From the NCBI GenBank assembly GCA_937975855.1, contig CALJTT010000003.1, forward strand, positions 26,901 through 90,900: DNA of 64,000 nt, read 5' to 3'. Shown in pieces: positions 158 to 49,554 of the stretch. The stretch comes from Minisyncoccota bacterium. Lineage in GTDB: Bacteria > Patescibacteriota > Minisyncoccia > Phycocordibacterales > UBA918. Each line of letters opens with the position of its first letter. Position 1 is the stretch's first letter. Under the pieces are notes generated by a model. That model was not told where the DNA came from and ran no database searches. It saw only the letters and a list, made by a program, of their open reading frames with translations. The translations under genes were made by a program, and so were the position numbers.

Positions 158-163
158 ATTTGG

Positions 164-189
164 ACGCGCCCCACCGGGGCGCGTTTTTC
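164..189 (+). terminator. Rho-independent terminator of the upstream gene
   Basis: Perfect stem GCGCCCC (166-172) / GGGGCGC (176-182), loop ACC, followed by TTTTT (184-188). Confidence 0.65.
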
Positions 190-194: not shown

Positions 195-203
195 TGCTAT
201 ACT
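195..203 (+). promoter_or_regulatory. Extended -10 box TGCTATACT, 7 nt upstream of the dnaE ATG (candidate leaderless promoter)
   Basis: TGC (195-197) + TATACT (198-203), then 7 nt (acaccca), then ATG at 211. No SD-like purine run in between. Confidence 0.5.
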
Positions 204-210
204 ACACCCA

Positions 211-3200
211 ATGCCTGAAACGACCGAGACTCCAGTTGCAGCGGATTTTGTACACCTTCATGTGCATTCGATGTATTCCCTTCTGAACGCCGTCCCAACA
301 CCAAAGGAACTAGTCGCGGCCGCGAAGGCGGACGGACAAACGTCGCTGGCAATCACTGACGCGGGAGCGATGTATGGTGTCATTGATTTTTACCAAGCCT
401 GTCACAACGAGGACATTAAACCCATCCTCGGTCTCGACGCCTATCTCGCCCCTCGTACTCGTCACGACAAAGAACATCCTGTAGACCGACCTCGCAGCCG
501 CGTCGTACTGTTGGCAAAGACATTCAAGGGATACCAAAATTTGATCCAGCTCGTAACACTATCGAACACAGAGGGGGCCTACTACAAGCCACGGTTGGAT
601 GACGAGCTGCTAACTAAATACAAAGAAGACCTGGTTTGTATCATTCCGTCATTCGCTGGCGAGGTGGCGCAGTCACTCAAAGACTCATTACCAGAACGCG
701 CGTCCGAGCGACTCGATTTTTATAAGAAGCTGTACGGCGAAGATTGTTATCTGGAAATCTCTCACCATCCTGAAATGTTTGGCCACGTGGAAGTGCAGGA
801 GAAGATCAAAGAACTGGCCAAAGAAACTAATACTCCCCTAGTCGCTGCGCACGACGTGTACTACATCAAGCCGACCGACCGATTGGCGCGTGAGACGATG
901 ATCAAGATCGGCACCGGTGGAGTCGTCGACACCACCGCAGACGACTCCGGCGAGGACTTCTCATTCAAGACCCAGGCGCAGATGAAGGAATGGTTTGCAG
1001 ACGTGCCCGAAGCTATTTCAAACACAGTAAAAATTGCGGACCAATGTAATGTAGAGATCACCCTCGGGCAAGAAGCCTGGGTATTTCCTGACTACATTAT
1101 AGAAAGCGGCAAAGAGCCAGATGACGAATTGCACGACACCGCCTGGGCTGGTGTGAAGTGGCGCGGACTCGACCCTGAGGACCCTGAACTTAAAAAGCGT
1201 CTGACGTTCGAACTCGATGTCATTAAAATGAAAGGCTACGCCAAGTACTTCCTGGTAGTAGGCGATCTTTTGCGCGAGTCGCGCGACCGTGGGATCTTGA
1301 CCACTATTCGAGGTTCGGTGGCTGGCTCGCTGACGACCTATGTTCTAGGGATTACCAACGTGGACCCGCTGGAGTATCGACTTCCCTTTGAGCGATTCCT
1401 CAACCCCGAACGACCGTCGGCACCTGATATCGATATGGACTTTGCTGATAACCGGCGTGACGAAATCATCGAGTATTCAAAAGCTAAATACGGTGAAGAC
1501 AAGGTGGCGCAGATCGGTACGTTTGGAACCATGGCAGCCAAAGCGGCCGTGCGTGACGTGGCGCGTGCACTGGGGCACAGCTACAGCACTGGTGATCGGA
1601 TTTCAAAACTTATCCCGTTGGGCGCACAAGGCTTCCCTATGACTATCGACCGCGCACTGGTCGAGGAAAAAGAACTGGCCGAACTATATAAGAAAGACGC
1701 CGAGAGTCGCGAGGTCATCGACCTGGCCAAACAGATCGAGGGCCGCGTTCGACACATCGGCGTGCATGCTGCTGGTGTGGTGATCTCGCCCGTACCACTG
1801 AACGAATACGTCCCCGTCCAACCCGACTCGAAAACTGGCAAATGGGTAACGCAGTACGAAATGCACAGCGTAGGTGAAGACGGCGTCGGACTCTTGAAAT
1901 TCGACTTCCTTGGAATCAAGAACCTGGCCATTTTGGCTGACGCGGTAAAGCGAGTGAAGAAAATTCGTGACGTTGACGTCGACATCGAGAACATTCCGCT
2001 GGACGATACCAAGACATTTGAAATGCTTGCCCGCGGCGAGACGATGGGATTGTTCCAGCTGAACGGAACAGGGATGACTTCATTCCTCAAGCAACTTAAG
2101 CCAACCAGCATTCATGACATTAATGCGATGGTGGCGCTGTATCGCCCTGGTCCGATGGAAATGATTCCGACTTATATTGAACGAAAGCACAACCCGTCAT
2201 TGGTGACATACCTCGACCCGCGTCTAGAGAACATTGTAGAGCGTTCTTACGGAGTCATCACCTACCAGGACGACGTGATGATGACGTCGATCGAACTGGC
2301 CGGCTACAGCTGGCTCGAAGCGGACAAGCTGCGTAAGGCCATGGGTAAGAAAATTCCCGAGGTAATGGCAGCCGAGAAAGATAAACTTTTTCAGGGACTC
2401 ATCGACAACGGCATGAGCTCACAAAAAGCCGAGCAACTATGGAAGTTGATCGAGCCGTTTGCAGCGTACGGGTTCAACAAGGCTCACGCTGCCTCTTACG
2501 GACGTGTCGCCTATCAGACTGCGTACATGAAGGCTAACTTCCCCGTCGAATACATGTCAGCGGTTCTTACCGCTGACTCTGGCGACACCGAGCAAATCTA
2601 TGCCATCATTTCTGAATGTAAGCGCATGGATATCGACGTCCTTCCACCAGACATTAACGAATCGTTTGCGGACTTTTCGGTGGTGCCCGGTACACAGACG
2701 ATTCGTTTTGGACTGACAACTATCAAGAACTTTGGCGCGGGTATTGCTGACATCATAATCGAAGATCGCAAAAATAACGGACCGTTTGCCGACATGCAAG
2801 ATTTTCTGTCGCGCATCCACGACCGCGCCTTGAACAAGAAATCAATGGAAGCACTTATCTGCACCGGCGCCTTCGACAGCTTCGACCGGCGCAGCGTTTT
2901 GTATCACAACCTAGAGATCCTACTCGCTTACAACAAAGAGCAAGTGTCCGAAAAAGAAACTGGGCAAGATTCTTTATTCGGCGGCATGGACGAAGTTGCT
3001 GGGCTAACTTTATTACCTGCCGAACAACTACCGACCCTACAAAAACTAACCTGGGAAAAAGACTTGCTGGGTGTGTATTTGTCCGGACACCCACTCGATG
3101 CATTCGAAGACGAACTAAAAAAACGTTCGCCACTATCGACAGTAAAATCAGACGGCCGTCAGGGCATCCCTGTCGTCACCGCTGGAATGATCGAAACCGT

Positions 3201-3468
3201 CAAAGAGCTCATCACCAAAAAGGGAGACAAGATGGCCTTCGTGCAACTTGTTTCCAAAGAAGAATCAATGGAAATGGTCACCTTCCCCGAATGTTTCGAA
3301 ACCCACCGCGATATGCTGGTGCCCGGCACTTGTGTGGCAGTAAAAGGTAAGCTGAACATCAGGAATGACGAACCGAGTATTTTGGTGGATAAGTTGAAAA
3401 GACTAGGTGGAGTACCAGAAGTAGAGGGAGGAGAAGTTGACAAGGAAACTCCTCAGCCTGTAGGATAG
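211..3468 (+). CDS. dnaE: DNA polymerase III alpha subunit
   Basis: PHP-domain start FVHLHVHSMYSLL, GFNKAHAASY motif, about 1085 aa. The ORF track starts at GTG 154, inside the upstream terminator. ATG 211 (MPETTETP...) is the more plausible start. Confidence 0.95.
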   Translation: MPETTETPVAADFVHLHVHSMYSLLNAVPTPKELVAAAKADGQTSLAITDAGAMYGVIDFYQACHNEDIKPILGLDAYLAPRTRHDKEHPVDRPRSRVVLLAKTFKGYQNLIQLVTLSNTEGAYYKPRLDDELLTKYKEDLVCIIPSFAGEVAQSLKDSLPERASERLDFYKKLYGEDCYLEISHHPEMFGHVEVQEKIKELAKETNTPLVAAHDVYYIKPTDRLARETMIKIGTGGVVDTTADDSGEDFSFKTQAQMKEWFADVPEAISNTVKIADQCNVEITLGQEAWVFPDYIIESGKEPDDELHDTAWAGVKWRGLDPEDPELKKRLTFELDVIKMKGYAKYFLVVGDLLRESRDRGILTTIRGSVAGSLTTYVLGITNVDPLEYRLPFERFLNPERPSAPDIDMDFADNRRDEIIEYSKAKYGEDKVAQIGTFGTMAAKAAVRDVARALGHSYSTGDRISKLIPLGAQGFPMTIDRALVEEKELAELYKKDAESREVIDLAKQIEGRVRHIGVHAAGVVISPVPLNEYVPVQPDSKTGKWVTQYEMHSVGEDGVGLLKFDFLGIKNLAILADAVKRVKKIRDVDVDIENIPLDDTKTFEMLARGETMGLFQLNGTGMTSFLKQLKPTSIHDINAMVALYRPGPMEMIPTYIERKHNPSLVTYLDPRLENIVERSYGVITYQDDVMMTSIELAGYSWLEADKLRKAMGKKIPEVMAAEKDKLFQGLIDNGMSSQKAEQLWKLIEPFAAYGFNKAHAASYGRVAYQTAYMKANFPVEYMSAVLTADSGDTEQIYAIISECKRMDIDVLPPDINESFADFSVVPGTQTIRFGLTTIKNFGAGIADIIIEDRKNNGPFADMQDFLSRIHDRALNKKSMEALICTGAFDSFDRRSVLYHNLEILLAYNKEQVSEKETGQDSLFGGMDEVAGLTLLPAEQLPTLQKLTWEKDLLGVYLSGHPLDAFEDELKKRSPLSTVKSDGRQGIPVVTAGMIETVKELITKKGDKMAFVQLVSKEESMEMVTFPECFETHRDMLVPGTCVAVKGKLNIRNDEPSILVDKLKRLGGVPEVEGGEVDKETPQPVG
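3437..3466 (+). promoter_or_regulatory. Candidate sigma70-type promoter for the thrS leader (TTGACA-18 nt-TAGGAT)
   Basis: TTGACA at 3437-3442 and TAGGAT at 3461-3466, inside the 3' end of dnaE. Would place the transcription start site (TSS) near 3473. Confidence 0.35.
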
Positions 3469-3472
3469 TAAC

Positions 3473-3640
3473 AACAGAGATTGTGGCGCTTACCAACCGC
3501 CAGGCTATTGCTCGGGAAACCCTAATCTGTATATAAAGTGTCAGGTACAAACCTGGAAGCCCGGTGGAACCGCGGCCGTCACAGACGGAACGTCCGAGCG
3601 AAGACATGAATTATTTTCGTGTAGTCGCTCGGACTTTTCT
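3473..3640 (+). promoter_or_regulatory. T-box riboswitch leader (threonine-type by context) controlling thrS
   Basis: T-box core GGUGGAACCGCG at 3563-3574. A 7-nt bulge UGGAACC (3565-3571) is flanked by a helix pairing 3559-3564 with 3594-3599. That 3' strand overlaps the 5' arm of the terminator hairpin (3592-3601 / 3625-3634). Sits directly upstream of an aaRS gene. Small 5' hairpin 3484-3502 has the loop CUUACCAAC, with ACC followed by A. Confidence 0.75.
3592..3640 (+). terminator. T-box expression-platform terminator
   Basis: GTCCGAGCGA (3592-3601) pairs with TCGCTCGGAC (3625-3634), followed by TTTTCTTATTTTT. Confidence 0.75.
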
Positions 3641-3657
3641 TATTTTTAATTATTCTT

Positions 3658-5478: not shown

Positions 5479-7713
5479 TTACGCTGTAAGCAATGCAAGC
5501 ATTCGATCGTTGTTGATCACTACCCATCCGTCTTCTAGTGGGAACTGTGCTTTTGCACTGTTCAATACTTCGAAGATTTTGGTAAGTTGGTCAGCAACTG
5601 GAATAGTGTTGACAAAAGTCTTGATCGCGTCGCTTGAGAGCAATGCTTGATTACTCTGAGCAATCGCTTCAAGAGCCGCAACTTCAACTGGAGTGTTGTC
5701 AGTAACCATAGCCGCTCGCGTTGGTACTTCAGCAACTGGTGCTACAGGAGCAACTGCGATAGGTAGATTAGCTGGTGCAACTGCTACTGAAGCAGCGACG
5801 TTTGTTGCTGGGGCTGCAGGTGCAACCGATGCAAACAAATCTGGTCGAGCAGCTTCAGCTCGCTGCATCTGTTCTACTGGTGTTGGAGTGAAAGAAGATT
5901 CTTTCGCAAGACTCATCGCTGCCTTAGGTACAACTAGTACGTAAGTCAGATATAGAGCCCAAGCAGTAAGCAACATGTAGAAGAAAGTTGTCATCATCGG
6001 ACCAGCTTCGAATCCAGTGTATGGCACTTGAGCCAACGAGATACCAGACACAAGTGGAGATTGATCACGCACTTGTAGGATTTGAAGTTCCTCTTCTACT
6101 TCTACTTCTACTGTACAACTTCGGTCACGTGAACCACGTTCTGCAGTCAATGTGTAAACTGTGTCAGTAGTTGGATTCACTCTGAATGATGAGTTCAATA
6201 GTTCGTCTTTGTCGTCAGACAAAAGTGTGTCAGTTGTAACGATCACGTTACCTTCGTCATCAGTCAATGTGATTTCACGTGCTCGGCTAGTTTCCCATGT
6301 AAGAGTTACTGTTTCTCCAGCGCTGATAGACGAGTCAGAAACTTCTAGTTCACAACGTGGTGAAGAGCTTCCTCCGCCACCTCCGCCTGAAGTAGTAGTT
6401 ACTACAGTTGTTGTAGTACATGATCCGTCGTCTTCAGTCGCGTTAGCGTTGTAGTTAGTTGCAGTTGAATCTGTACAACCGCGAACTGGGTCTGGATCTA
6501 CTGAATAAACACATGAGTTGTCGTTCTGCGTTGCGTTAGCATCGTAGTTTGTCGCGTCTATATCTGTACATCCTAGAACCGGGTCTGGCTCGTTTGTCGC
6601 TACAATATCGATTGCTGCACAGATCGGATAAAGACTGTTAGCGAACAATACATCTGGGTAGTATGGGTGTACTCCACTGATTCCTGTAATGTCGGTTGAA
6701 AGCTCTAGTGAAGAGTTAACCATCTCTACCTTTCCGTCTTCTCGTACGTTATCAGCAAGGTCAGAACTGTATCCTGAAGCTGCCATGATAGTAGTTCCGT
6801 TTAGGAAATGTAGTTTCCACTGTTCGTTTGGCTGACTAGTGTTAACTCGGTTTAGGTAACCGTCCCAAGACTGCAATGTAACTTTGTAGTTACCAGCAGC
6901 AAGGTTAACTGATTGCGCTGCAGTTTTTGCAGATGCTGCACCTTGGTCAGTTCGTAGTTTTTCGCCACCGAAGTCAACGATAGTACGACCGTCCTGTGCG
7001 TCAAACGAACATACTGGTGCAATTGGGTAATTGTACTCACAATCAGCTTCAGCCTGGTAGTTGTTTGCAAGTGGGTCTTCACACGTAACTGTTACAGGTG
7101 TGTATTCACATGCTTCACCAGCTACTGTAGCTTCAGGGTTGTAATTGTTTGCGTCAGCGTCCATACAACCTGAGATAGGTGTTACGACTACAGGGTACTC
7201 ACAGTCGCCTGCTTGTCCGTAGTTTGTTGCATCTTGATCTTCACAAGTTGCTACTGGCTGTGCAAGACAAACAACATTGAAAGTCTGTGAACAGTTGTCG
7301 CCGTTAGCATTAGTAACTTCTACGGTGTAGGTGGTATCAATCGTTAGATCAGTGAATGTGATGTCGCCTTTATCTTGAAAAGCAACTTCTTGACCGTTAA
7401 CCTTAACAGTATCAAATCCAACAGTGTCCCATGAAAGAGTCACACTGCCGCCGTATTCAACTGTGTCGGCACTACTAGTCAGCTCACAAGAAGTTTCAGA
7501 CTGTACTGAAACAACAGTCACTGTGTCTCCACCTGTGGTATCTAGGTTATCTAGATCAATATTAGTAGTTGTAAGATCTACCGTTGGCAGATCAATTGTA
7601 AAGTTTAGAGAGTCAAGAAGTGAAGCTGACGAAACCGTCGGCGCCATAATTGCTCCTGACACTACGACTACCGCTAGAACGCGCGCAAGTCGTGAAATTG
7701 TGTTTGAAAACAT
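5479..7713 (-). CDS. Large secreted surface protein with a sortase-like VPYTG+TM signal and a ~155-aa cytoplasmic tail
   Basis: Signal-like start MFSNTISRLARVLAVVVVSGAIMAP (ATG 7713; the ORF track extends to TTG 7824). Two Ig-like modules bracketed by Cys (CELTSS...NVVC; CELEVSD...SCTVEVEV). Five short C-x-D-x2-A-x-NY...C repeats and a G6S3 linker. VPYTG is encoded at 6015-6029, followed by the helix MMTTFFYMLLTAWALYLTYVLVV and an Ala/Pro/Val-rich tail. Confidence 0.8.
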   Translation of the reverse strand: MFSNTISRLARVLAVVVVSGAIMAPTVSSASLLDSLNFTIDLPTVDLTTTNIDLDNLDTTGGDTVTVVSVQSETSCELTSSADTVEYGGSVTLSWDTVGFDTVKVNGQEVAFQDKGDITFTDLTIDTTYTVEVTNANGDNCSQTFNVVCLAQPVATCEDQDATNYGQAGDCEYPVVVTPISGCMDADANNYNPEATVAGEACEYTPVTVTCEDPLANNYQAEADCEYNYPIAPVCSFDAQDGRTIVDFGGEKLRTDQGAASAKTAAQSVNLAAGNYKVTLQSWDGYLNRVNTSQPNEQWKLHFLNGTTIMAASGYSSDLADNVREDGKVEMVNSSLELSTDITGISGVHPYYPDVLFANSLYPICAAIDIVATNEPDPVLGCTDIDATNYDANATQNDNSCVYSVDPDPVRGCTDSTATNYNANATEDDGSCTTTTVVTTTSGGGGGGSSSPRCELEVSDSSISAGETVTLTWETSRAREITLTDDEGNVIVTTDTLLSDDKDELLNSSFRVNPTTDTVYTLTAERGSRDRSCTVEVEVEEELQILQVRDQSPLVSGISLAQVPYTGFEAGPMMTTFFYMLLTAWALYLTYVLVVPKAAMSLAKESSFTPTPVEQMQRAEAARPDLFASVAPAAPATNVAASVAVAPANLPIAVAPVAPVAEVPTRAAMVTDNTPVEVAALEAIAQSNQALLSSDAIKTFVNTIPVADQLTKIFEVLNSAKAQFPLEDGWVVINNDRMLALLTA

Positions 7714-7858
7714 AATGATAATTAAGTTAAACCTCCTAAGATTAATACTCTCACCTACACCAAGATACGCAAGAGTAATCAAACCTACGAAATTATTATA
7801 GAAATCAACGAGCGCGTTAGCCAAGCTAACAGAAGGAGCAATATGAATCGCGCCTATA

Positions 7859-7891: not shown

Positions 7892-8614
7892 TTAGCTCGA
7901 ACGTACTACTTGGCGCGAAGCTTCCACGATGTATCTGTCATCTGCACTACCGAAACTGTTGCAAGTAGCCAGAGTTAGCATGTTTCCTGTATCAGCGATT
8001 GGCACCACTAGTTCCGAAGCTTTAGCTTTGTACACCTTTTCAACGCGGTAAACGTAAGTTTTGTCACCTCCAGACACCTCAATAGTGTCTCCCCACTGGA
8101 GATTCTGAATACCATTTAGAGCCTGGTAGTTCTTATTAAGTACGTTAGGCAGGTAACTTGAGTGCCCAAGAATGAACACGTTGCCCTCCCTATCCAGTGT
8201 CGCTGAGTCAGGATGCCGAACAACTCCACCCAAAAGGGCTGTATCTAGGTCGGCAACAGATCGCGAAATAGGATTCAAAACGTCGACAGTTTTGTCGAGC
8301 TTGGCAATGTAAATTGACTGAGGCAGTACTTTTTCAATCGGAGCGATAGTTACTGGCTCTTCAGTAATATCAATATTAAGAGGCTCTGTTGTTGCAGGCT
8401 CGAGTGTTTCAGCTTGGAAAATACCATTTGACATAGTGTCAGACGTTACAGAGGTAGCGGGGGCTACCGTTTTTACTTCTTCTGTTGGAGCTTCCGGCAA
8501 GAAATCAACCACATACAAAATAGTGTAGGTTGTAGTGAAGATTAGGAAAAACATTACGACAAAGCGAATTTTTCTTTCCCAAACTAGCTGAAACAAGTTA
8601 GATGTATTAATCAT
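7892..8614 (-). CDS. Sortase-family transpeptidase
   Basis: N-terminal TM (IRFVVMFFLIFTTTYTILYVV), His motif FILGHSS, catalytic LTLATCN (TLxTC), downstream Arg (DRYIVEA). Start ambiguity: the ORF track uses ATG 8632, but a -10 box overlaps it, so ATG 8614 (MINTSN...) is preferred. Confidence 0.8.
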   Translation of the reverse strand: MINTSNLFQLVWERKIRFVVMFFLIFTTTYTILYVVDFLPEAPTEEVKTVAPATSVTSDTMSNGIFQAETLEPATTEPLNIDITEEPVTIAPIEKVLPQSIYIAKLDKTVDVLNPISRSVADLDTALLGGVVRHPDSATLDREGNVFILGHSSYLPNVLNKNYQALNGIQNLQWGDTIEVSGGDKTYVYRVEKVYKAKASELVVPIADTGNMLTLATCNSFGSADDRYIVEASRQVVRSS

Positions 8615-8622
8615 TGCGAAAT

Positions 8623-8650
8623 ATGATAGCATTTATTTAAAATTTGTCAA
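8623..8650 (-). promoter_or_regulatory. Promoter TTGACA-16 nt-TGCTATCAT, 8 nt upstream of sortase ATG 8614 (leaderless candidate)
   Basis: Minus-strand TTGACA = 8650-8645 and TGCTATCAT = 8631-8623. The -35 region is an inverted copy of the one at 8720. Confidence 0.5.
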
Positions 8651-8719
8651 TACTATATTAGTGATACTATTCTGCTTAGTAGAACGTCAATATAAAGTGA
8701 ACACGAGACCTAAATATTA

Positions 8720-8747
8720 TTGACAAATTTGTAATGAATGTTAATAT
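8720..8747 (+). promoter_or_regulatory. Promoter TTGACA-16 nt-TAATAT (with TGT extension), 9 nt upstream of ATG 8757
   Basis: TTGACA at 8720-8725 and TGTTAATAT at 8739-8747. Divergent partner of the sortase promoter. Confidence 0.5.
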
Positions 8748-8756
8748 CGCAAAATT

Positions 8757-9797
8757 ATGAACAACAACACTTCACCCGAAAAGAAAGGTTCGATTATGAA
8801 AACACTGGCTGTGGCCGGATTTATCGGCATATTGATGCTGGTAGCATGGCTTTCTGTGCAACTAGTACATCTATTCCCTTCAGCTGTAACATCGCTCGCC
8901 TCCCTGGCAGACGGAGTAAACCAATATCCTGGAAACATCACCGAGGGTGACACAGAACCGCTTCCTTTGAACATCACCAGCGACACGTCACTGCTCGCCT
9001 CAGGTGAAGCGCTAACACTTAAGTGGAACAAAGTGCAGAGCGCCGGCGAATACATCTTTGCGTACGAATGTGTTGAGGGTGTTTCGGTATCACACCAGTC
9101 TGCACTAGGTAACCGGGCAATCGATTGTGCAACAAACTACAATATAGGACCAGTCGATACTCTAACCATGAACGTAGAGTCAGAAAAAAATCGCTACTCT
9201 GACCTGGCTTACACAGTCTCTTTCTTACACGCTGGCGAAGCAGCTCCTAGAGCAGCTGGAAAAAATACAGTGACTATTGTAAATACCGACGTAGTAAGTG
9301 ACCAGTTTGCTTTCTCACCCGAAGTTGTCGAGGTAGAACCAGAAGTGGCACCTGTTGCTGAACCAGCGGTAACACCCGAACCAGCTACACCACAAGAAAC
9401 AGTAGCCGAGGTAGTAACTACACCTGTTACTCCAACAGTAGTTGTCGACCCATACACCGACCTTACAACTTCATTTATGAGTGTGGGTGAAATCATCAAC
9501 AATCAGTTCGTGCCTGGACCAGTCAGTACTAAAAATGCTGGAGCGGTTCAGTTTGCGGTCAAGAACATCGGTACAGAAACTTCTGGTGGTTGGACCTACA
9601 GCATTTCTCTACCTAATGACAATACGTACGTATCCCCCATCCAAACACAGCTAGTGCCCGGAGAGCGAGCAATTATTTCAATTGGCTTCCCTGCCAGTGG
9701 TCGTAATTCTCACGTATTTTCAGTAGCTGCTGCAGAAGCTGGCGACACAGAACTAACAAATAACACATTCCGACAAACGGTGGCATTTGTAAACTAG
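8757..9797 (+). CDS. N-terminally anchored surface protein with a CARDB-like C-terminal domain
   Basis: TM segment KTLAVAGFIGILMLVAWLSV. C-terminal segment AVQFAVKNIGTETSGGWTYSISLP...ERAIISIGF...TELTNNTFRQTV resembles CARDB/Ig-like folds. An alternative start at ATG 8796 is preceded by GAAAGG. Confidence 0.65.
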   Translation: MNNNTSPEKKGSIMKTLAVAGFIGILMLVAWLSVQLVHLFPSAVTSLASLADGVNQYPGNITEGDTEPLPLNITSDTSLLASGEALTLKWNKVQSAGEYIFAYECVEGVSVSHQSALGNRAIDCATNYNIGPVDTLTMNVESEKNRYSDLAYTVSFLHAGEAAPRAAGKNTVTIVNTDVVSDQFAFSPEVVEVEPEVAPVAEPAVTPEPATPQETVAEVVTTPVTPTVVVDPYTDLTTSFMSVGEIINNQFVPGPVSTKNAGAVQFAVKNIGTETSGGWTYSISLPNDNTYVSPIQTQLVPGERAIISIGFPASGRNSHVFSVAAAEAGDTELTNNTFRQTVAFVN

Positions 9798-11948: not shown

Positions 11949-11979
11949 GCGGAAGTGAGTATAATGAAATAACACTTAC

Positions 11980-12009
11980 ATTATAGCATTATTTTAACAA
12001 CAGAAGTAA
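11980..12009 (-). promoter_or_regulatory. Candidate gyrB promoter TTACTT-18 nt-TGCTATAAT
   Basis: Minus-strand TATAAT = 11985-11980 with TGC extension; TTACTT = 12009-12004. A second TATACT (11963-11958) lies 9 nt from the ATG. Confidence 0.4.
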
Positions 12010-14639: not shown

Positions 14640-15362
14640 CTAAAACTGATTAACAAACCGCAGGTCGCCGGTGTAGTAGTCGCGGATATCTTCGATTCCG
14701 TATTTCATCACTCCCAAGCGATCAATTCCCATTCCAAATGCGTAGCCAGTGAACTCGTTGGCATCGACACCACTGTTTGTGAGCACGTTTGGATGTACCA
14801 TGCCCGCTCCCATAACTTCGATCCATTTGCCGACATGGCGACTCTCGCCCTCGAGCAGGCGCATGTCCACCTCGACTCCTGGCTCAACAAACGGAAAGAA
14901 GCTGGGGCGAAACCGCACCTCCGTCTTGCCGTCAAAAAACTTTGAAAAGAAGTGTTCAAGCGTACCCTTCAGGTGACCAAGATGTACTCCTTTACCAACA
15001 TGCAGTCCTTCCAGTTGATAGAACTGCGCCTCGTGCGTCGCGTCGGTAGCTTCGTTGCGAAAGACCTTGCCTGGAACGATGATTTTGCATGGCGCGCCGT
15101 TCTCTTCCATATAGCGTGCCTGCACTGGGCTGGTTTGAGTACGCAAAACTGTGGGCTCACTCACGTCCTTTCCTTTGAACCAAAATGTGTCCTGCATGTC
15201 TCTGCTGGGATGGTCTTTAGGGACATTCAGTTGGTCGAAGTTGTAGTGTTCGGTTTCAGCCTCTGGCCCTTCTGCAAAGACAAAGCCGATCTCGGCAAAG
15301 ATACTGTTGATTTCTGAGATCATCTGCGTCAGCGGATGCTGGTGTCCGGGTGTTTCTTTCAT
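14640..15362 (-). CDS. pheS: Phenylalanyl-tRNA synthetase alpha subunit (catalytic core only)
   Basis: HPLTQMISEI..., FRPSFFPFVEPGVEVD (motif 2), GMGIDRLGVMKYG (motif 3). 240 aa, so it lacks the N-terminal coiled-coil arm. Confidence 0.9.
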   Translation of the reverse strand: MKETPGHQHPLTQMISEINSIFAEIGFVFAEGPEAETEHYNFDQLNVPKDHPSRDMQDTFWFKGKDVSEPTVLRTQTSPVQARYMEENGAPCKIIVPGKVFRNEATDATHEAQFYQLEGLHVGKGVHLGHLKGTLEHFFSKFFDGKTEVRFRPSFFPFVEPGVEVDMRLLEGESRHVGKWIEVMGAGMVHPNVLTNSGVDANEFTGYAFGMGIDRLGVMKYGIEDIRDYYTGDLRFVNQF

Positions 15363-15385
15363 GAAGTTTCTAGTGTAGCACGGGG

Positions 15386-16560: not shown

Positions 16561-18123
16561 CTACGATTGTACACGCTTAGGTGTCACCCAAAAACCCATG
16601 TAGCGGCCAAACATCAGTCTAGTCTGAGCGTCGAGTCCAGGGATGGCACTAAACACGATCATCGTCATTGGCACCATGATCCACTGCAATGCCATCACAA
16701 CGTAACGAAAGCGACTGTGTCCTTCTGGTCGTGGCGGTGTAAGTGAGAGTGAGATCACCGCTGAGATAACCAATCCGACCATAGCTACAGTCAGCATATT
16801 CCGCACCAAAATCGGTAGTTCGTAGGACAACACTGTCTCGTGAAATTCACGCGTCCCCAAGAAAATCGGAGCCCAACCGAGAATGAAGAGCATGATCGGG
16901 TTCGTCACCAGCGACCAATATCCTTCACCCTGAAGCAAGGCGATACCCCAACGCTTGCGCAGTGGGATCGATTTGTTCTTAGTGAAATGATAAACGATGT
17001 AACACCAGTTCTCTACACCATAAGTCCAGCGGCGGTGCTGCTTGTAGATATTAACGATAGTCCCCCACAACGTTGGTGCTGTGGTGGCGTCCATCGCTAT
17101 CGGGTAAGAAATCGGCACGATGTCGAAGTTACCGTCGTTCGCCAACAGCAAGTTCCAATAGATACGCGAGTCTTCACTAACTACATTCGCTTGCCCATAA
17201 CCGATTTCATACAACGCCTGATAACTCACCGAGTGTGAAGAAAAAGTGGCCGCCTTGTCTGGCCGCTCCTGCATAATCATTTGCCAAAAGGTACTAGACA
17301 TTGCCATCACCCGAGACAAGGCTGGTGCTTCCCACAAGTTATTGGTGAACAGAGGCACCGGCTGGTACGCACTTTTGTACGGCTGCTCGGCAGTCATAAA
17401 GTGCCAAATGAGACAATTGAAATAGTCCGGGTATATCACTGTGTCGACATCAAAAATAGAAGTGAGGATTTTCTTGTGGCTAATCTGTTCTTTTTCGATT
17501 ACAGCTTTGTGCACCTGATGAAGCGCGTAGTGAACGTTTGAACCCTTCCCAGCGATCTCCCCCGAAGTATCCGCAGGATGGACCGAGGCGACCACGTATC
17601 CAAACTTGTCAGCGTACAACGCTTCCATTTCACGCGCGAGTTCTGCCTGCTCTTTCCCAGCTCGCTCTTCAGCAGCAATCACTACGATCAATTTTTTTGG
17701 ATCGTACCTTGCATCCAGCAAACCCTGAAGTGCCGCCACCAACACTTCGCGTGGCTCTTTATAAAAAGGAAATACAACCAGGTGGTAATAGTCATCGTAG
17801 TCAAACCGTTTGATCAGGTGCTCCCAATCCAAGCTCATGTGATGCTTTAAACGTTTCCAGTTGTATCGCACGTGATACGAAAGAAAGATGGTCTTCAGAA
17901 CCCAGTAGATGGAGAAAGCAATAATGAAATAGGCCGCAAAGAAAGACCAGTAGATTGAGGCAAGCACAATCCCAATCAAAGCCGACCACGAAGCGACTCC
18001 GGGTACAATCTCCAAAAAGCGATAGAACCGGGCATCTTTGCCTTTCAGCTCATTTGCTCTACCCACTTTAAAATCTGCCCGACGGGCATACGGCAACAAA
18101 TCCTCCTGGGGTATCTCACTCAT
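16561..18123 (-). CDS. Processive family-2 glycosyltransferase (membrane-embedded, QxxRW type)
   Basis: DVD (IFDVDTV), SEDSRIY and QHRRW motifs, with multiple TM helices at both ends. Start at ATG 18123 (MSEIPQ...). The longer track ORF runs into the tRNA gene. Confidence 0.8.
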   Translation of the reverse strand: MSEIPQEDLLPYARRADFKVGRANELKGKDARFYRFLEIVPGVASWSALIGIVLASIYWSFFAAYFIIAFSIYWVLKTIFLSYHVRYNWKRLKHHMSLDWEHLIKRFDYDDYYHLVVFPFYKEPREVLVAALQGLLDARYDPKKLIVVIAAEERAGKEQAELAREMEALYADKFGYVVASVHPADTSGEIAGKGSNVHYALHQVHKAVIEKEQISHKKILTSIFDVDTVIYPDYFNCLIWHFMTAEQPYKSAYQPVPLFTNNLWEAPALSRVMAMSSTFWQMIMQERPDKAATFSSHSVSYQALYEIGYGQANVVSEDSRIYWNLLLANDGNFDIVPISYPIAMDATTAPTLWGTIVNIYKQHRRWTYGVENWCYIVYHFTKNKSIPLRKRWGIALLQGEGYWSLVTNPIMLFILGWAPIFLGTREFHETVLSYELPILVRNMLTVAMVGLVISAVISLSLTPPRPEGHSRFRYVVMALQWIMVPMTMIVFSAIPGLDAQTRLMFGRYMGFWVTPKRVQS

Positions 18124-18210
18124 AACTAATACGAGCGAGTATAGCTTTATTTTGCTTGGAAATAAAGCTTTTAATTCAACGTGAGCCCATACTATTGGGA
18201 CTCTTACTTG

Positions 18211-20244: not shown

Positions 20245-20640
20245 CTAAAACCTTTCTTCTAATTTTTGTTTGTTGAGTTTGCGTTTTTGGGCTGCGGTTA
20301 GGGCTGTCTCGGTTTTGTGTTCGTACATCTTGGATAAGTGACTGTCGTTATGCACAACTGTCAGCGGTGTCTGGGTAGCATGACGCAGGAGTGCGGTCAT
20401 AACTGCGTTGTCTGCAGTGCCAGTTTTTGAGCTTGCGTGTGTGAGCCTGCTGCGCGAGAAACTCTGCAACTTGCCAAGTATCGACCCACCGTAATCTAAG
20501 GCCCTGTCAGCGTGATTTCGCACGCCATTGAGGTACAGTCTTTCACCATGCTGTTTTTCCAGCATGACTAATCGAAAAGCAAAAACAAAAAGCGCCGTGG
20601 TGGCGCCAAATGTGACTGCTGATAGCAGTAGCGTCTCCAT
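20245..20640 (-). CDS. Hypothetical single-TM protein
   Basis: 131-aa ORF with N-terminal helix LLLSAVTFGATTALFVFAF and a basic C-terminus. Packed 10 nt downstream of tsf. Confidence 0.5.
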   Translation of the reverse strand: METLLLSAVTFGATTALFVFAFRLVMLEKQHGERLYLNGVRNHADRALDYGGSILGKLQSFSRSRLTHASSKTGTADNAVMTALLRHATQTPLTVVHNDSHLSKMYEHKTETALTAAQKRKLNKQKLEERF

Positions 20641-20649
20641 TCCTCTATT

Positions 20650-21234
20650 CTACTTCACTGACACGCGGTTAATTTGAGCGATGTTGATATTCTCGCCAAA
20701 CTTTTGAATGCCTCCTGAGACCATTTCTGCGATAGTCGTTTCCGGGTTCTTGATAAAGTCTTGTTCCATCAAAATCTGATCTTTGAAGTATGCGTTGACC
20801 TTGCCTTCCATGATCTTTTCGTGCATATCTTCCGGCTTGCCTTCTAGCTCTGGAGCAAAAACTTCTTTAGCTTTCTCCAGCGCATCTTCTGGCATTTCAT
20901 CTCGATTGATGAACTTAGGGTCTGTTCCAGCTACTTGCAAAGCAATGTCTTTTGCCAGGGCAACAAATTCTTCGTTCTTTGACACAAAGTCAGTCTCACA
21001 AACAAGCAACACCGTCGCTGCGACTTCGTTGGTGTTGTGTACGTATACACCAACAGCGCCAGCGCCGAATTCTCGGTCAGATTTTTTCTCAGCTGCTTCG
21101 CTTCGCTTCTTCTTTAGGATGATGACAGCTTTGTCCATGTCTCCTTCTGCTTCAACCAATGCCTTCTTGCATTGCATGACTGAGATTCCAGTCTTCTCTC
21201 GTAGTTCTTTTAATTGTGCTGATGAGGTTTCCAT
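20650..21234 (-). CDS. tsf: Elongation factor Ts (short form)
   Basis: LKELREKTGISVMQCKKALVEAEGDMDKAV UBA-like N-terminus. Adjacent to rpsB, as in most bacteria. Confidence 0.9.
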   Translation of the reverse strand: METSSAQLKELREKTGISVMQCKKALVEAEGDMDKAVIILKKKRSEAAEKKSDREFGAGAVGVYVHNTNEVAATVLLVCETDFVSKNEEFVALAKDIALQVAGTDPKFINRDEMPEDALEKAKEVFAPELEGKPEDMHEKIMEGKVNAYFKDQILMEQDFIKNPETTIAEMVSGGIQKFGENINIAQINRVSVK

Positions 21235-21313
21235 AATGATTCAATCTTCAAACTAAATAACAATATTATCGCGGTCAGTATACCGCGGGCCGGACTAATT
21301 CCGAAGTCGCAAA

Positions 21314-22260: not shown

Positions 22261-23238
22261 TTATTCTGCAACGCCATCAGCACCAAAAGATGATAGCGCG
22301 TCGACAATCGGTTTCAAGTCCCCTGCCAAAGTTGCTTCGATCGTGTGCCATGACTGCTTGATGCGGTGGTCGGTGATGCGGTTTTGCGGGAAGTTGTAAG
22401 TACGGATTTTTTCGCTACGATCACCGGTTCCGATCTGACCCTTTCTTACAGCGGCGTGTTTTTTGGCTTCTTCTTCTTCGTGAAGCGCTTCCAGTTTGGC
22501 AGTCAACATTTCCATCGCCTTGAGCCGGTTCTTTAGTTGAGAACGATCGTTCTCACAACGCACGTCGATACCAGTTGGACGATGAACCAGGCGAACGGCT
22601 GTTTCAACCTTGTTGACGTTCTGTCCGCCAGCACCGCCAGCGCGCGAGAACTCCATGTCAATGTCTTGTGGGTTAATTTCCACTTTCGGTTTTTTACGCA
22701 TCGGCAAAACTGCCACCGACGCAGTCGAGGTATGGATCCGGCCCTGTTTCTCTGTGGCCGGCACTCGCTGCACTCGGTGCACACCAGTTTCATATTGAAG
22801 GTGTTCGTACACGTCAGGGTGCAAAAACTCGAAAGAGGCTTCTTTGTATCCACCAGCTTCGTTCATGCTGGTGTTGTTAATTAGTGTCTGCCACCCATTG
22901 GTAGCGGCGTATGCCTGATACATCTGCGCCAGTTCTCCTGCGAACAATGAGGCCTCGTCTCCTCCGGCACCTGCTCGCACTTCAATCATCACACCGTATG
23001 GTTTTTCGTCTTCTACTCTACTAGCCTCGATTATGCGATCCATCTCGTCGAACTGGTCCTGCAGCTGTTTGGTAAGCTGGGCGATTTCTTCTTGCGCTAG
23101 TTCGGCCATCTCAGGGTCGCTGTCAGCCAGCTCTTGTGCCTCGGTTAGTTTGACCATCTCACTATCAAACTGCGACGCGAGAAATTGCGTCTTTTGATTT
23201 TCCTTAAATTCTGTGAGTTTGTCTTGGTCAAATTCCAT
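22261..23238 (-). CDS. prfA: Peptide chain release factor 1
   Basis: GGQ motif ([19 protein letters not shown]) and the RF1-type tripeptide PAT (RVQRVPATE). No internal frameshift. Confidence 0.9.
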
Positions 23239-23245
23239 ATGTTTC

Positions 23246-23251
23246 AGTATA
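23246..23251 (-). promoter_or_regulatory. -10 box TATACT, 7 nt upstream of the prfA ATG (leaderless candidate)
   Basis: Minus-strand TTGTATACT-gaaacat-ATG, immediately after the rpmE terminator. Confidence 0.45.
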
Positions 23252-23254
23252 CAA

Positions 23255-23680: not shown

Positions 23681-25036
23681 TTAATTACTCAAGATCTGGA
23701 TCTCTTGGGCTAGGCGGGATTTTCGGTTCATTACTTGGTTTCCGTAGAAGGCGTTGGCGGGGTTGTTTGCTCCTCCCCAGCCGGCATAGTAGCGCAGTGC
23801 TGCCATACGATCGCCGTTGTATGTGCCGTCGGCGCCGTTGTCACGCATCAGGAGGGCTGTAGCAATAAACGCGTCACGGTTATTGAAAGGGTTCGCGATA
23901 TCTCCACCGTTGATAGCACGAATGGCGTCAGAACCACGGCTGTAAACATAGCCTCCGGCACCGTCACTAACAATTCCGCCGTAGTATGCCCAGGTAGAAG
24001 GGATAAACTGTGAAGGTCCCATAGCTCCACCCCAGCCGACGCGTTGTCCCCCCTGATGAATCGGACACGACACGGTACGAGTCGTTGGGTCAAACCCAAG
24101 AATCTCTGCGATTGCCAAAAATACTGGTTCGTCTCGTGTTGGGTGCATCACTGGTCGAGACGAATTACTATCTGTAAACAGGCAACTGCCGAGATTTGAA
24201 CCAATGTTAGTTTCCTGTTCGAGAATAGCAAGAATCAATGCAGCGTCGACACCAGTTACCTGCGAAGCGTACTTTGCCAAGTCGACTGCCTGCGGCAACG
24301 GGATTCCTCCGCCTCCACCAAGAAGTGTGAAGAGCTGGTTACGTAGCTGTGCAGCGGTTTTTTCTTGTGATTTTAAAAGTGCGACATATTCGTTTTCTTC
24401 GCCTTTAGTCACGTTGAGGATCTGCGCTTTGGTCCTTTCGCGCTCTTCGATAGTCTTTTTTTCCAACTCTTGGATTCGCTTCATCTCAGCTTCTGTTTCT
24501 TTTTTGCTGGCGAGTTGTTCTTTTTGCTCAACTGTGTCGCTACGAATTTCGTGGAGAATTTCAAGAGACTCGTTTAGCGAATCTTTTAATGTATTGAAAG
24601 TGGCAACGTCACTAAAGAACTCTGAAAAATTTTGCTTACTCAACACAACCTCGACCAACGTGTGATCTGACTGCAGGGCAGACTTACGCACCAAGTCTGC
24701 TAGCGACGCGTGTTGCTTTTGTGTCTTTTCGCTAAGTACATCAAGTACAACTTCTTTGTCGCCGATCTGGTCAGACAGCTGCTCGATGGCAGCAGCTCTG
24801 GCCTGAATGCCGAGTTGAGCCTGAGTGATCTCACCTTCAATAATAGAAATGTCACGCTCGATAGATCGACGTTCCAATTTTTTATCTTCAACTAGTCTTT
24901 GCTGGGTGAGGATTTGACGCTCGACTTGCATCAACTGATTTTCAATACGACTACGACGCTCCGTCTCGCTTTCTGCAAAAACAGAATACGGAAGAACAAA
25001 CAATGCGATCAAAAAACAGGCCAACAATTTATGCAT
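23681..25036 (-). CDS. Secreted coiled-coil protein with a C-terminal lytic transglycosylase-like (MltB/SLT_2-like) domain
   Basis: Signal peptide MHKLLACFLIALFVLPYSVFA, then about 220 aa of heptad-rich sequence. The C-terminus has GWGGAMGPSQFIPSTW, resembling the MltB GAMGQ-QFMPS motif. Confidence 0.65.
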   Translation of the reverse strand: MHKLLACFLIALFVLPYSVFAESETERRSRIENQLMQVERQILTQQRLVEDKKLERRSIERDISIIEGEITQAQLGIQARAAAIEQLSDQIGDKEVVLDVLSEKTQKQHASLADLVRKSALQSDHTLVEVVLSKQNFSEFFSDVATFNTLKDSLNESLEILHEIRSDTVEQKEQLASKKETEAEMKRIQELEKKTIEERERTKAQILNVTKGEENEYVALLKSQEKTAAQLRNQLFTLLGGGGGIPLPQAVDLAKYASQVTGVDAALILAILEQETNIGSNLGSCLFTDSNSSRPVMHPTRDEPVFLAIAEILGFDPTTRTVSCPIHQGGQRVGWGGAMGPSQFIPSTWAYYGGIVSDGAGGYVYSRGSDAIRAINGGDIANPFNNRDAFIATALLMRDNGADGTYNGDRMAALRYYAGWGGANNPANAFYGNQVMNRKSRLAQEIQILSN

Positions 25037-25042
25037 GCTGTT

Positions 25043-25051
25043 AGTATACCA
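25043..25051 (-). promoter_or_regulatory. Extended -10 TGGTATACT, 6 nt upstream of ATG 25036 (leaderless candidate)
   Basis: Minus-strand TGGTATACT-aacagc-ATG, directly after the terminator hairpin. Confidence 0.45.
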
Positions 25052-25102: not shown

Positions 25103-25738
25103 TTACTCGGCTGGCTTCTCTTCTGTTTCTGCCCCAGCCTCTGGCGCTTCTCCTTCGGCTCCTTCTTCTGCAACCACTTCTTCTTCGACTTCTTCTTTCT
25201 GGACACTGATTACCGCTACTGGGTCTTCAGCTTCTGCATTGTAAGTTACACCTTCAATTTTCGGCAAATCTCCGACAGTAATCTTGTCGTTTTCTGTCGC
25301 CAGAGTCGAAACATCAACCGTAATGTCTGAAGGGATGTCACTTGGCCGACAAGTAACTTCAACATCCTGAATAATTCGTGTCACTGTTCCAATACCACCC
25401 TTCTCTGCTGGAGCTTCTCCAACGAATTCTAGTGGGATTGATACAGTCATTTCTTTACCTCGCTCGATAGCGTAGAAATCAACATGAACAATCCCTTGTT
25501 TAATTGGGTTGAAATCAACTTGCTTGATCAAAACCTCAAGCTCTTCACCTAAACCAGTTAGAGTGATGATCGTTGACTCACCCGCGTCCTTGCGAACTTT
25601 ATCGAAAGTAAGTTCATCAAGGCTCATTGCAAGTGGTTCTTGCTTTGGACCATAAACTACCGCCGGCACGTGACCAGCTGGTAATGTCCCGCGCCCAGTG
25701 GCCGCGTCTCTTTTTGCTACTTCTAGTTTCATAGTCAT
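25103..25738 (-). CDS. rplY: 50S ribosomal protein L25/Ctc with an acidic C-terminal tail
   Basis: GHVPAVVYGPKQEP..., VLIKQVDFNPIKQGIVHVDF, C-terminal EEVEEEVVAEEGAEGE. Confidence 0.85.
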   Translation of the reverse strand: MTMKLEVAKRDAATGRGTLPAGHVPAVVYGPKQEPLAMSLDELTFDKVRKDAGESTIITLTGLGEELEVLIKQVDFNPIKQGIVHVDFYAIERGKEMTVSIPLEFVGEAPAEKGGIGTVTRIIQDVEVTCRPSDIPSDITVDVSTLATENDKITVGDLPKIEGVTYNAEAEDPVAVISVQKEEVEEEVVAEEGAEGEAPEAGAETEEKPAE

Positions 25739-25785
25739 AGTGCGGTGTAGAGTATCACAATTTCAAGAAAATCAAAGCACTTAGC

Positions 25786-26706: not shown

Positions 26707-26715
26707 TGTTATACT
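26707..26715 (+). promoter_or_regulatory. Extended -10 TGTTATACT, 8 nt upstream of ATG 26724 (leaderless candidate)
   Basis: TGT (26707-09) + TATACT (26710-15), then gggtgcat, then ATG. Confidence 0.45.
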
Positions 26716-26723
26716 GGGTGCAT

Positions 26724-34425: not shown

Positions 34426-34470
34426 ATAACAATAAGTATAACGGGTCGACGGACACTTGCCCACCGATTG

Positions 34471-36607: not shown

Positions 36608-36659
36608 AAAAATAAATGATAGTTACTTATACCTGCCCTACAGTATACAAGCCAAGATT

Positions 36660-45417: not shown

Positions 45418-45976
45418 GGTTGATGTAGGTCCATTGTGCCTGAGTAATCGGATGCTCGACAAAACGTTTTTGTTCCGCCCTTACTTCATCGGTCTCTGAA
45501 AAGATCGGCCGTAAACTATCGCTAGGTTGATTGGGAAGATCACTGACGTTTTGTGTGACCACAACCGACGCCGTATTATTTTGCATATCCCCCGGCACAG
45601 CATTGAAAAAATAAAAACCTGCTACTCCTCCTGCCAAAAACATCCCTAGTGTAAGAGCGTGAGCATAGACATGGCTGTGAGATTTTTCTACAGACTGATC
45701 CGTTTGCTTTGTATACGTTTTTTTCTTTTGCACTTCCTCATTTGCCAACTGCTCGTGCTTTGTTCGTAGATCACTATCTTGATCCCTCACTAACATGTAA
45801 GAACGGAAAGAGTCATCGTTTACATACCATTGCTGGTTAATCTCAACAGCTTTAATTTTATGATCTTTAGCCAGCTGTGTAACGTATTCACCAGAACAAG
45901 AAAAAACCTCTGCAACAGTTTGTACAGCGATGAAATTTTGGTCGTTTATGTTGATACTGCCCGGTACAAACTTCAC
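45410..45976 (-). CDS. Membrane-tethered protein with an N-terminal HTH-like (excisionase/MerR-like) domain
   Basis: GTG start at 45976 with TATAAAAT 6-8 nt upstream. N-terminus IAVQTVAEVFSCSGEYVTQLAKDHKIKAVEINQQWYVNDDSF, one TM (ALTLGMFLAGGVAGFYFF) and a short C-terminal tail. Confidence 0.55.
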   Translation of the reverse strand: MKFVPGSININDQNFIAVQTVAEVFSCSGEYVTQLAKDHKIKAVEINQQWYVNDDSFRSYMLVRDQDSDLRTKHEQLANEEVQKKKTYTKQTDQSVEKSHSHVYAHALTLGMFLAGGVAGFYFFNAVPGDMQNNTASVVVTQNVSDLPNQPSDSLRPIFSETDEVRAEQKRFVEHPITQAQWTYINHE

Positions 45977-46028
45977 ATATACATTTTATAGGTAAAGGAG
46001 CCCAAAAAAGATGCCCGGTGTGTATAAA

Positions 46029-47051: not shown

Positions 47052-47058
47052 TGGGGTA

Positions 47059-49514: not shown

Positions 49515-49554
49515 GGTCAATACCATACCTCACTGCCCCCAATGCAGCAATGTT

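Follow-up and report, generated by a model that had tools for sequence, protein, structure and literature searches.

Leaderless mRNAs are translated without a Shine-Dalgarno (SD) sequence from a 5'-terminal AUG or GUG, by a route that uses the 70S ribosome and initiator tRNA. Transcription starts ~6-8 nucleotides (nt) downstream of a -10 hexamer, and Actinobacteria, Deinococcus and archaea offer well-known examples of a gene-start design based on leaderless messages. Patescibacteria, whose ribosomes are reduced, account for a large part of bacterial diversity. We analyzed gene starts in a 64,000-nt stretch of contig CALJTT010000003.1 from an uncultured, ultra-small Minisyncoccota bacterium (GenBank assembly GCA_937975855.1, positions 26,901 to 90,900; hereafter the window), in which a TATACT-like -10 box recurs immediately ahead of start codons. 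The enrichment of this box at gene starts is real and far above chance. We consider it very probable that the boxes are promoters at leaderless distance and that most of the resulting mRNAs begin at or next to the start codon, with no SD sequence. The window is an instance of a known gene-start design, that of group C in the GeneMarkS-2 classification, in a lineage for which full-text searches of the literature on Patescibacteria, Candidate Phyla Radiation, Parcubacteria and Saccharibacteria found no report of a leaderless architecture, and it departs from that design in that its remaining genes also lack SD sequences.

Comparison with described systems

In group C genomes (Mycobacterium tuberculosis, Streptomyces, Corynebacterium, Deinococcus deserti) a Pribnow box lies ~10 nt from the gene start, with a predicted spacing of 6-8 nt in M. 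tuberculosis; the predicted leaderless share in these bacteria is 25-50%, and leaderless mRNAs were seen for 167 of the 262 D. deserti genes that had been mapped (PMC6028130). The window resembles them in having a -10 box ~6-10 nt before the first genes of transcription units at sharply defined spacers, in confining this signal to such genes and in starting them with ATG or GTG. The 21 genes that we class as leaderless-type or as having a very short leader make up 42% of all genes, or ~57% of the ~37 that are not tightly coupled to an upstream gene, a share that reaches or exceeds the upper end of the group C range. Other genes in group C use SD sequences, whereas the internal and leadered genes of the window have none. 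The -10 consensus of the window also leans towards TATACT and frequently has a TG extension. Its genome is packed much more tightly, boxes standing in gaps of 12-36 nt, and the lineage, Patescibacteria, is not mentioned in the main text of PMC6028130.

The boxes further resemble extended -10 (TGnTATAAT) sigma-70 promoters, in that the hexamer is preceded at 13 starts by TG plus one further base and in that -35/-10 pairs are not enriched over shuffles; unlike this -35-less type, the promoters at 7887, 8650 and 8720 carry TTGACAAAT as a -35 element. In group B genomes the same motif stands ahead of all genes, internal ones included (PMC6028130). SD-poor Bacteroidota and cyanobacteria of this group share with the window little or no SD sequence and A/U-rich 5' regions, yet their non-SD motif lies inside the leaders of all genes, whereas the window element is promoter-like and missing before internal genes. 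As in the haloarchaea and Sulfolobus of group D, where most transcription units are leaderless, a promoter element would define the translation start; the archaeal element is a TATA box at about -26 served by TBP/TFB, and the window has a bacterial -10 box at about -10. Within the same broad lineage, one study of Parcubacteria found the CCTCCT anti-SD motif in just 48% of them and proposed that SD helices do not form in the others (PMC9297842). The anti-SD-less Parcubacteria overlap the group lacking uL1, and bS21 is frequently absent (PMC9297842, Tsurumaki et al. 2022, RNA 28:1041). The SD absence in the window is what such ribosomes would predict; that study covered rRNA and ribosomal proteins rather than gene starts and offered no alternative initiation signal.

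Enrichment of -10 boxes at gene starts

Our gene set consisted of ~50 tightly packed window genes, mostly on the minus strand. An earlier sequence-only reading had listed 16 genes with box, spacer length and start coordinate and had noted that the motif recurs 6-9 nt ahead of start codons. All 16 rows were reproduced exactly on re-reading the sequence, and an enrichment is borne out within the window by 6-mer, shuffle and decoy tests. To avoid circularity, starts were initially fixed blind to the motif, as the longest open reading frame (ORF) or the first ATG of the ORF. At longest-ORF starts TANNNT peaks at -15 to -12 in 15 of 50 genes, against ~1.3 per position elsewhere. At first-ATG starts TATACT is the top-ranked 6-mer between -30 and -1 (9/50 genes versus 0.19 expected, p = 4.5e-13), followed by its flanking words TGTTAT and GCTATA. 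At curated starts, a good -10 box at a spacer of 5-10 nt is present in 19/50 genes, compared with 1.76 +/- 1.27 in 2000 dinucleotide shuffles of the upstream regions, none of which attained 19; the extended form TGnTANNNT precedes 13/50 starts, with 0.52 expected from shuffles. Good boxes are found at none of 293 internal in-frame ATG decoys and at 0-5% of control offsets inside the same spacers. The same pipeline, run on 50 kb of Escherichia coli K-12, places TANNNT at a spacer of 5-10 nt in 2-5% of genes, versus 47-56% in the window. Conversely, among the best 14 extended -10 matches on both strands of the whole window, 9 sit 6-9 nt ahead of long-ORF starts; of the remaining five, three stand further away (one at 12 nt and two at 28-31 nt) and the other two fall inside genes.

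We sorted the genes, named here by start coordinate where needed, into the following classes:

Leaderless-type, 19 genes: 211, 8614, 8757, 15362, 20640, 23238, 25036, 25738, 26724, 34425, 45976, 47051, 49514, 49890, 52428, 55736, 56587, 61091, 62453
Very short leader, 2 genes: 18123, 61164
Leadered without SD, 8 genes: gyrB, tsf, rpmE, 36607, 58540, 58602, 26652, thrS
Coupled to the upstream gene, 13 genes: 14627, 16555, 30589, 33527, 35118, 35579, 38294, 39058, 40051, 45417, 48524, 53475, 59982
Not placed in a class, 8 genes: 7713, 12656, 20209, 22057, 28615, 29907, 32432, 40801

The proposal that leaderless initiation is the default mode thus stands for independently transcribed genes (~21 of ~37) and falls for the 13 coupled and at least 8 leadered genes. 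The 19 accepted leaderless-type genes start with ATG (17) or GTG (2), and none with TTG. The individual sites of these and of the two genes with very short leaders are:

162-186, plus strand: terminator hairpin, 11-bp GC-rich stem with T-run, ending 8 nt ahead of the dnaE -10 box
195-213, plus strand: dnaE; extended -10 box TGCTATACT at 195-203, 7-nt spacer acaccca, ATG 211-213
8614-8656, minus strand: promoter part of the sortase gene; TTGACA -35 at 8650-8645, TGCTATCAT at 8631-8623, 8-nt spacer, ATG 8614
8714-8759, plus strand: promoter part of gene 8757 (no Pfam family); TTGACA -35 at 8720, TGTTAATAT at 8739-8747, 9-nt spacer, ATG 8757
15362-15380, minus strand: pheS (Pfam tRNA-synt_2d), absent from the sequence-only list; TGCTACACT, 9-nt spacer, ATG 15362
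18123-18143, minus strand: GT2-like gene; TATACT 14 nt ahead of ATG 18123, predicted very short leader of ~7 nt
20640-20652, minus strand: gene 20640; TAGAAT, 6-nt spacer, ATG 20640
23238-23253, minus strand: prfA (Pfam PCRF/RF-1); TGTATACT after a GC hairpin and T-run, 7-nt spacer, ATG 23238
25036-25051, minus strand: SLT-domain gene; TGGTATACT at 25051-25043, overlapped by a 19-bp terminator hairpin at 25091-25050, 6-nt spacer, ATG 25036
25738-25757, minus strand: gene 25738 (211 amino acids); TGATACTCT, 10-nt spacer, ATG 25738
26707-26726, plus strand: PfkB kinase; TGTTATACT, 8-nt spacer, ATG 26724
34425-34440, minus strand: transketolase N-terminal subunit (tktN); TATACT, 9-nt spacer, ATG 34425
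45976-45990, minus strand: gene 45976; TATAAAAT, 6-nt spacer, GTG 45976
47051-47067, minus strand: gene 47051; TGGTACAAT, 7-nt spacer, conserved GTG 47051, N-terminus VQKISFGNKEYV
49514-49527, minus strand: obg; weak box TATGGT, 7-nt spacer, ATG 49514
49890-49905, minus strand: holin-4-like (YvlD-like) gene; TGCTATAAT, 6-nt spacer, ATG 49890
52428-52441, minus strand: secA; TATACT, 7-nt spacer, ATG 52428, near-invariant N-terminus MSFLDRFFGPTY
55736-55754, minus strand: Wzy_C/TPR gene; TGCTATAGT at 55754-55746, 9-nt spacer, ATG 55736; 18-bp terminator hairpin at 55841-55802
56587-56603, minus strand: methyltransferase; TGATATACT right behind the upstream stop codon, 7-nt spacer, ATG 56587
61091-61109, minus strand: GT4 glycosyltransferase; TGTTATAAT, 9-nt spacer, ATG 61091
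61143-61166, plus strand: gene 61164; TGTTACACT, 12-nt spacer, ATG 61164, predicted leader of ~5 nt
62437-62455, plus strand: Asn-synthase-like gene; TGTTACAAT, 7-nt spacer, ATG 62453

Box, spacer and start of prfA are present as listed earlier, yet TGTATACT is not a true TGn extension, and the names 'CARDB-like' and 'HTH-TM' used for some of these genes find no support in Pfam. Longer upstream ORF starts exist for dnaE, gyrB, PfkB, tktN, sortase, obg, the Wzy_C/TPR gene and 47051. The idea that the boxes settle such ambiguities holds for dnaE, PfkB, tktN, Wzy_C/TPR, 47051 and sortase, where the start next to the box matches the conserved N-terminus. The obg start had to be corrected from 49526 to ATG 49514, in line with the conserved N-terminus MFVDE.

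Conservation of the box in orthologues

For comparison we collected 80 loci around gyrB, from the best GyrB relatives in a genome collection, and 80 metagenome loci around secA (together L001-L160; 2.27 Mb). These best 80 GyrB relatives share 74-90% identity and come from metagenome-assembled genomes labeled Patescibacteria, Paceibacteria/Paceibacterota, Kaiserbacteria, Nomurabacteria or Parcubacteria, some bearing automated 'Saccharibacteria' labels; SecA identity among the compared relatives reaches down to ~55%. The GyrB matches place the window in a bacterium of the Candidate Phyla Radiation, most likely of the class Paceibacteria. Orthologues were found via their N-terminus, the DNA ahead of the conserved start was then inspected, and conservation was scored as the share of orthologues with TANNNT at a spacer of 5-10 nt, versus control offsets of equal width.

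The box is retained in 93% of 30 orthologues of gene 47051 (control 16%), 92% for the Wzy_C/TPR gene (22%), 83% of 69 for secA (20%), 76% for the holin-like gene 49890 (14%), 71% of 55 for gene 8757 (21%), 68% for pheS (15%) and 61% for prfA (17%). The internal genes pheT and 53475 reach 13% and 10%. In secA the flanks diverge while box and N-terminal peptide persist (...TATATACTagctggt ATG MSFLDRFFGPTY), and gTGATATAGTttcacccat ATG MKDFLK is likewise retained amid diverging flanks of the Wzy_C/TPR gene. The TG extension is kept in orthologues of pheS, 47051, 55736 and 8757. Lower values were obtained for obg (40% versus 16% control) and for the sortase gene, whose family-wide box is only weakly over control (45% versus 34%) and whose nearest relatives retain TTGACA together with an extended -10 box at 8-11 nt. 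In relatives of gene 45976 the box lies at 8-21 nt, so that conservation is partial, and TATACT is kept at 9-14 nt in relatives of the GT2-like gene 18123.

Few orthologues were found for dnaE, the SLT-domain gene, PfkB, tktN and the methyltransferase, and they agree with the box position: dnaE orthologues in loci L031 and L032 retain TGnTATACT at 7-9 nt, and the Pfam PHP domain begins at residue 15 of the window protein; the SLT-domain gene has TGnTATAMT at 8-11 nt in 3/3 orthologues, PfkB an extended -10 box at 8-9 nt in 3/4 and tktN a -10 box at 8-10 nt in 3/4; the single methyltransferase orthologue has TGCTACACT at 6 nt. Two orthologues of gene 25738 carry the box at 9-10 nt, and the GT4 and Asn-synthase-like genes have no orthologues among the 160 loci. 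Ahead of gene 20640, TAAAAT stands in the same arrangement in three relatives; in the window, its TAGAAT box (20647-20652, minus strand) begins with the TAG that is also the stop codon of tsf, so that stop and promoter overlap. Two candidates for the leaderless-type class, pheT (14627, TAATAT at 5 nt) and gene 16555 (TACAAT at 10 nt), were rejected and placed among the coupled internal genes, their boxes being conserved only in the closest relatives.

Absence of Shine-Dalgarno signals

The expectation of little SD use was confirmed, with SD-like words (AGGAG, GGAG, GAGG, AGGA) at or below background between -20 and -4. They precede 6% of window genes, compared with 39% (blind starts) or 57% (annotated starts) in E. 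coli K-12 under the same pipeline. Among ~1,600 genes of the relatives, SD words occur at -16 to -5 in 3-11%, versus 1-7% at control positions, and across same-strand gap classes up to 120 nt they are present in 1-7% of genes, internal ones included. The internal genes 40801, 40051 and 39058 have no SD-like sequence, as had been claimed. The start context shows another bias: T stands at -1 of the start codon in ~59% of 1,557 genes from the window and the comparison loci (background 30%), and G in 7%. Its share is equal in leaderless-type, coupled and other genes, pointing to a lineage-wide start context and not only to the pyrimidine-purine preference of transcription starts.

Promoter-like features and gene spacing

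TTGACA lies 16 nt upstream of the box at two promoters, those of the sortase gene and gene 8757. A generic two-hexamer -35/-10 scan gave 26 versus 20.0, 18 versus 20.2 and 20 versus 24.6 in comparison with shuffles. We read this lack of pair enrichment as a sign of -35-independent extended -10 promoters, not as an absence of promoters. At several boxes the place of a -35 element falls within a terminator hairpin. Boxes are found directly behind intrinsic terminators at dnaE, the SLT-domain gene and the Wzy_C/TPR gene, and behind a GC hairpin plus T-run at prfA. The share of genes with a good box at a spacer of 5-10 nt depends on the gap to the upstream gene: 2% for overlapping genes, 16% for gaps of 0-5 nt and 29-42% for 16-120 nt, with fewer at longer gaps. 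Same-strand gaps peak at -4, -1 and +1 to +5, which is the geometry of termination-reinitiation coupling.

The window has just three copies of the sequence TTGACAAAT (7887, minus; 8650, minus; 8720, plus), each of them a promoter -35 element, and these promoters belong to the sortase gene, gene 8757 and gene 7713, which encodes a 744-residue secreted protein. The sortase and 8757 promoter modules form a 30-nt inverted repeat (8627-8656 and 8714-8743). The three genes may be a co-regulated cell-surface set; the LPXTG motif is absent from both sortase neighbors.

Interpretation and alternative explanations

From the motif, its position and enrichment, its conservation in orthologues, the SD absence and the tight stop-start junctions, all read directly from the DNA, we infer where transcription starts and by which route translation begins. 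The recurrent element would be the housekeeping-sigma -10 box of Patescibacteria (probably Paceibacteria), with the consensus TGnTATACT/TATAAT and usually without a recognizable -35 element. As polymerase starts ~6-8 nt past the -10 box, its location 6-10 nt ahead of ATG or GTG in ~40% of genes would put the mRNA 5' end at, or 1-3 nt ahead of, the start codon: spacers of 6-8 nt are predicted to yield leaderless mRNAs and those of 9 nt near-leaderless ones with 1-3 nt. Such transcripts would have no room for an SD sequence, and translation would proceed by direct recognition of the 5'-terminal AUG or GUG. Genes directly behind another one (overlap of -4 or -1, gap of +1 to +5) are most likely served by termination-reinitiation coupling, while string-internal genes with a box of their own would be translated from their own transcripts.

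Several points weigh against leaderless initiation at these boxes. Six boxes with 9-nt spacers more likely yield 1-3-nt leaders than true leaderless mRNAs, several boxes are weak (TATGGT, TATCAT, TACTCT), and gyrB provides a good-looking box at 9 nt that is incidental. The motif was one consideration in choosing eight of the gene starts, although starts fixed blind to it yield the same picture. Genes 29907 and 28615 have SD-like AAGGAG/GGGAG sequences at 8 nt, in a number expected by chance. Ribosome recruitment by SD-less leaders of 20-60 nt is not explained by the scheme.

The element might instead act in the mRNA, as a non-SD ribosome-binding site (RBS) or enhancer of the group B type on leadered, polycistronic transcripts. 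It is positioned 6-9 nt from the start, as an RBS would be, it also appears in 12-24-nt gaps inside apparent gene strings (56587, 49890, 15362), and T at -1 in all gene classes speaks for some start context at the mRNA level. A group B motif, however, precedes all genes (PMC6028130), whereas the box here is found before 2% of overlapping and 10-13% of conserved internal genes. The TG extension, the TTGACA partners and the position right behind terminators are promoter features, and ahead of leadered genes the same box is retained at a distance of 28-66 nt. We therefore regard an RBS as quite improbable. Slightly less improbable, but still unlikely, is that the promoters are real and the messages carry short leaders, because translation starts further downstream or transcription further upstream, so that leaderless genes would be an artefact of start choice. 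Start codons were assigned by inference, genes 18123, 61164 and 25738 have a spacing of 10-14 nt, the gyrB box is misleading and the obg start had to change. Against this, N-termini are conserved right up to the ATG or GTG in secA (MSFLDRFFGPTY), 55736 (MKDFLK), 47051 (VQKISFGNKEYV) and obg (MFVDE), Pfam domains open within a few residues of the chosen starts, and hairpins cover the alternative upstream starts at dnaE and 55736. The least credible explanation is a functionless by-product of A+T-rich spacers and nearby TAA/TAG stops. Loose TANNNT matches are indeed common in such spacers (10-22% per 6-nt window at control offsets) and some boxes overlap stop codons, as in 20640, but the observed counts were reached in 0/2000 shuffles, good boxes in 0/293 decoys and at 0-5% of control offsets, and conservation at a fixed distance in divergent relatives is not expected of composition alone. 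These results effectively refute it.

Promoters at leaderless distance remain the explanation that we prefer. A broader proposition, to which we give somewhat less than an even chance, is that the promoter took over the role of the RBS while the ribosome lost its anti-SD function, most genes being either leaderless or reinitiated at stop-start junctions. Leaderless mRNAs would then arise from a -10 box that fits within the very short gap behind an upstream stop codon or even overlaps that codon. If true, this would explain why -10 boxes recur within gene strings (secA, holin-like, obg, gatB) and how translation starts in the anti-SD-less Parcubacteria reported in 2022; a conserved box at leaderless distance together with the SD absence offers a testable answer to the latter question. 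Pattern searches for conserved stretches found no 16S or 23S segment in any of the 160 loci. The L11/L1 cluster gave no tblastn match there, in a weak test with E. coli L11, L1, L10 and S21 as queries. On the practical side, gene callers that seek SD sequences or the longest ORF misplace starts in the window, and expression constructs intended for these organisms should work without an RBS.

Leadered genes

The sequence-only reading had counted gyrB as leaderless. Its TATACT (11963-11958, minus strand) is present, yet it is not the conserved promoter: a box at this position is found in 32% of orthologues versus 41% at control offsets, and the leaderless assignment was rejected. Most of the 80 relatives share a conserved TGCTATAAT further upstream, at 28-35 nt from the ATG. 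Sites of gyrB and of the other leadered genes are:

11988-11980, minus strand: TGCTATAAT of gyrB, 31 nt ahead of ATG 11948; predicted leader of ~24 nt, no SD
21234-21282, minus strand: tsf; TATACT 42 nt ahead of ATG 21234, no SD
23649-23641, minus strand: TGCTATAGT of rpmE (L31), 66 nt ahead of ATG 23574; conserved GCGCCGAAGT element in the leader
36607-36649, minus strand: gene 36607; TGTATACT 34 nt ahead of the ATG, at equal distance in relatives
58577-58569, minus strand: TGTTATAAT of gene 58540, 28 nt from the ATG; divergent pair with 58602
58565-58573, plus strand: TGTTATTAT of gene 58602, 28 nt from the ATG
26689-26681, minus strand: TGGTACTAT of gene 26652 (tentative), 28 nt ahead of ATG 26652; divergent from PfkB
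3414-3657, plus strand: divergent T-box leader ahead of a thrS-like gene, ATG 3658, beginning inside the 3' end of dnaE

Predicted SD-less leaders are ~20-60 nt long for gyrB, tsf, rpmE, 36607, 58540, 58602 and 26652, and the T-box leader of thrS measures ~190 nt. In the gyrB leader (11949-11988, minus strand) a conserved A/U-rich element, TTATTtATTGATTATTT, follows TGCTATAAT in most relatives, and this leader may be regulatory, for example supercoiling-responsive. Several relatives have TGnTATAGT at 8-10 nt from rpmE instead of the box at 66 nt seen here, which suggests a switch between leadered and leaderless states within the lineage. The extended -10 boxes of 58540 and 58602 overlap on opposite strands at 58565-58577 (TGTTATAATAACA). 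The thrS T-box spans the full Rfam model at 21.7 bits (E = 0.005), far under the gathering threshold, and contains GGUGGAACCGCG; its terminator, GUCCGAGCG ... CGCUCGGAC plus a U-run, is conserved in relatives immediately before the ATG.

The leader of gene 7713 (7713-7790, minus strand) has a conserved GTAGGTGAGAGTATTAAnCTTATGAA-like element, seen in relatives L006, L020, L024 and L029. AGGAGGT lies 18 nt ahead of the window ATG, too distant for a normal SD sequence. Relatives have an in-frame ATG where the window reads AGG (cttAGGagg), which indicates that the start of gene 7713 has shifted.

Further observations

RNA genes in the window, searched for with Rfam and ARAGORN, comprise one tRNA-Thr and no rRNA. 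The comparison loci contain 52 tRNAs, examined as a check on the promoter motif in genes that are not translated; nearly all are from the same tRNA-Thr locus, with only weak TGnnAnnAT-like boxes ~30-45 nt upstream. Two high-scoring extended -10 boxes lie within coding regions on the minus strand, TGATATACT at 39189-39197 and TGTTACACT at 60142-60150, 130-165 nt upstream of the next starts at 39058 and 59982; both may be promoters within genes, or may match by chance. For gene 40801, ATG 40762 is an alternative start that has TGATACTAT 7 nt ahead of it; a single orthologue is available for comparison. Transketolase is apparently split into an N-terminal (33529-34425) and a C-terminal gene (32538-33527), both on the minus strand and separated by 1 nt, the Pfam check covering the N-terminal part only. 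The C-terminal gene has neither SD nor box and is probably translated by coupling.

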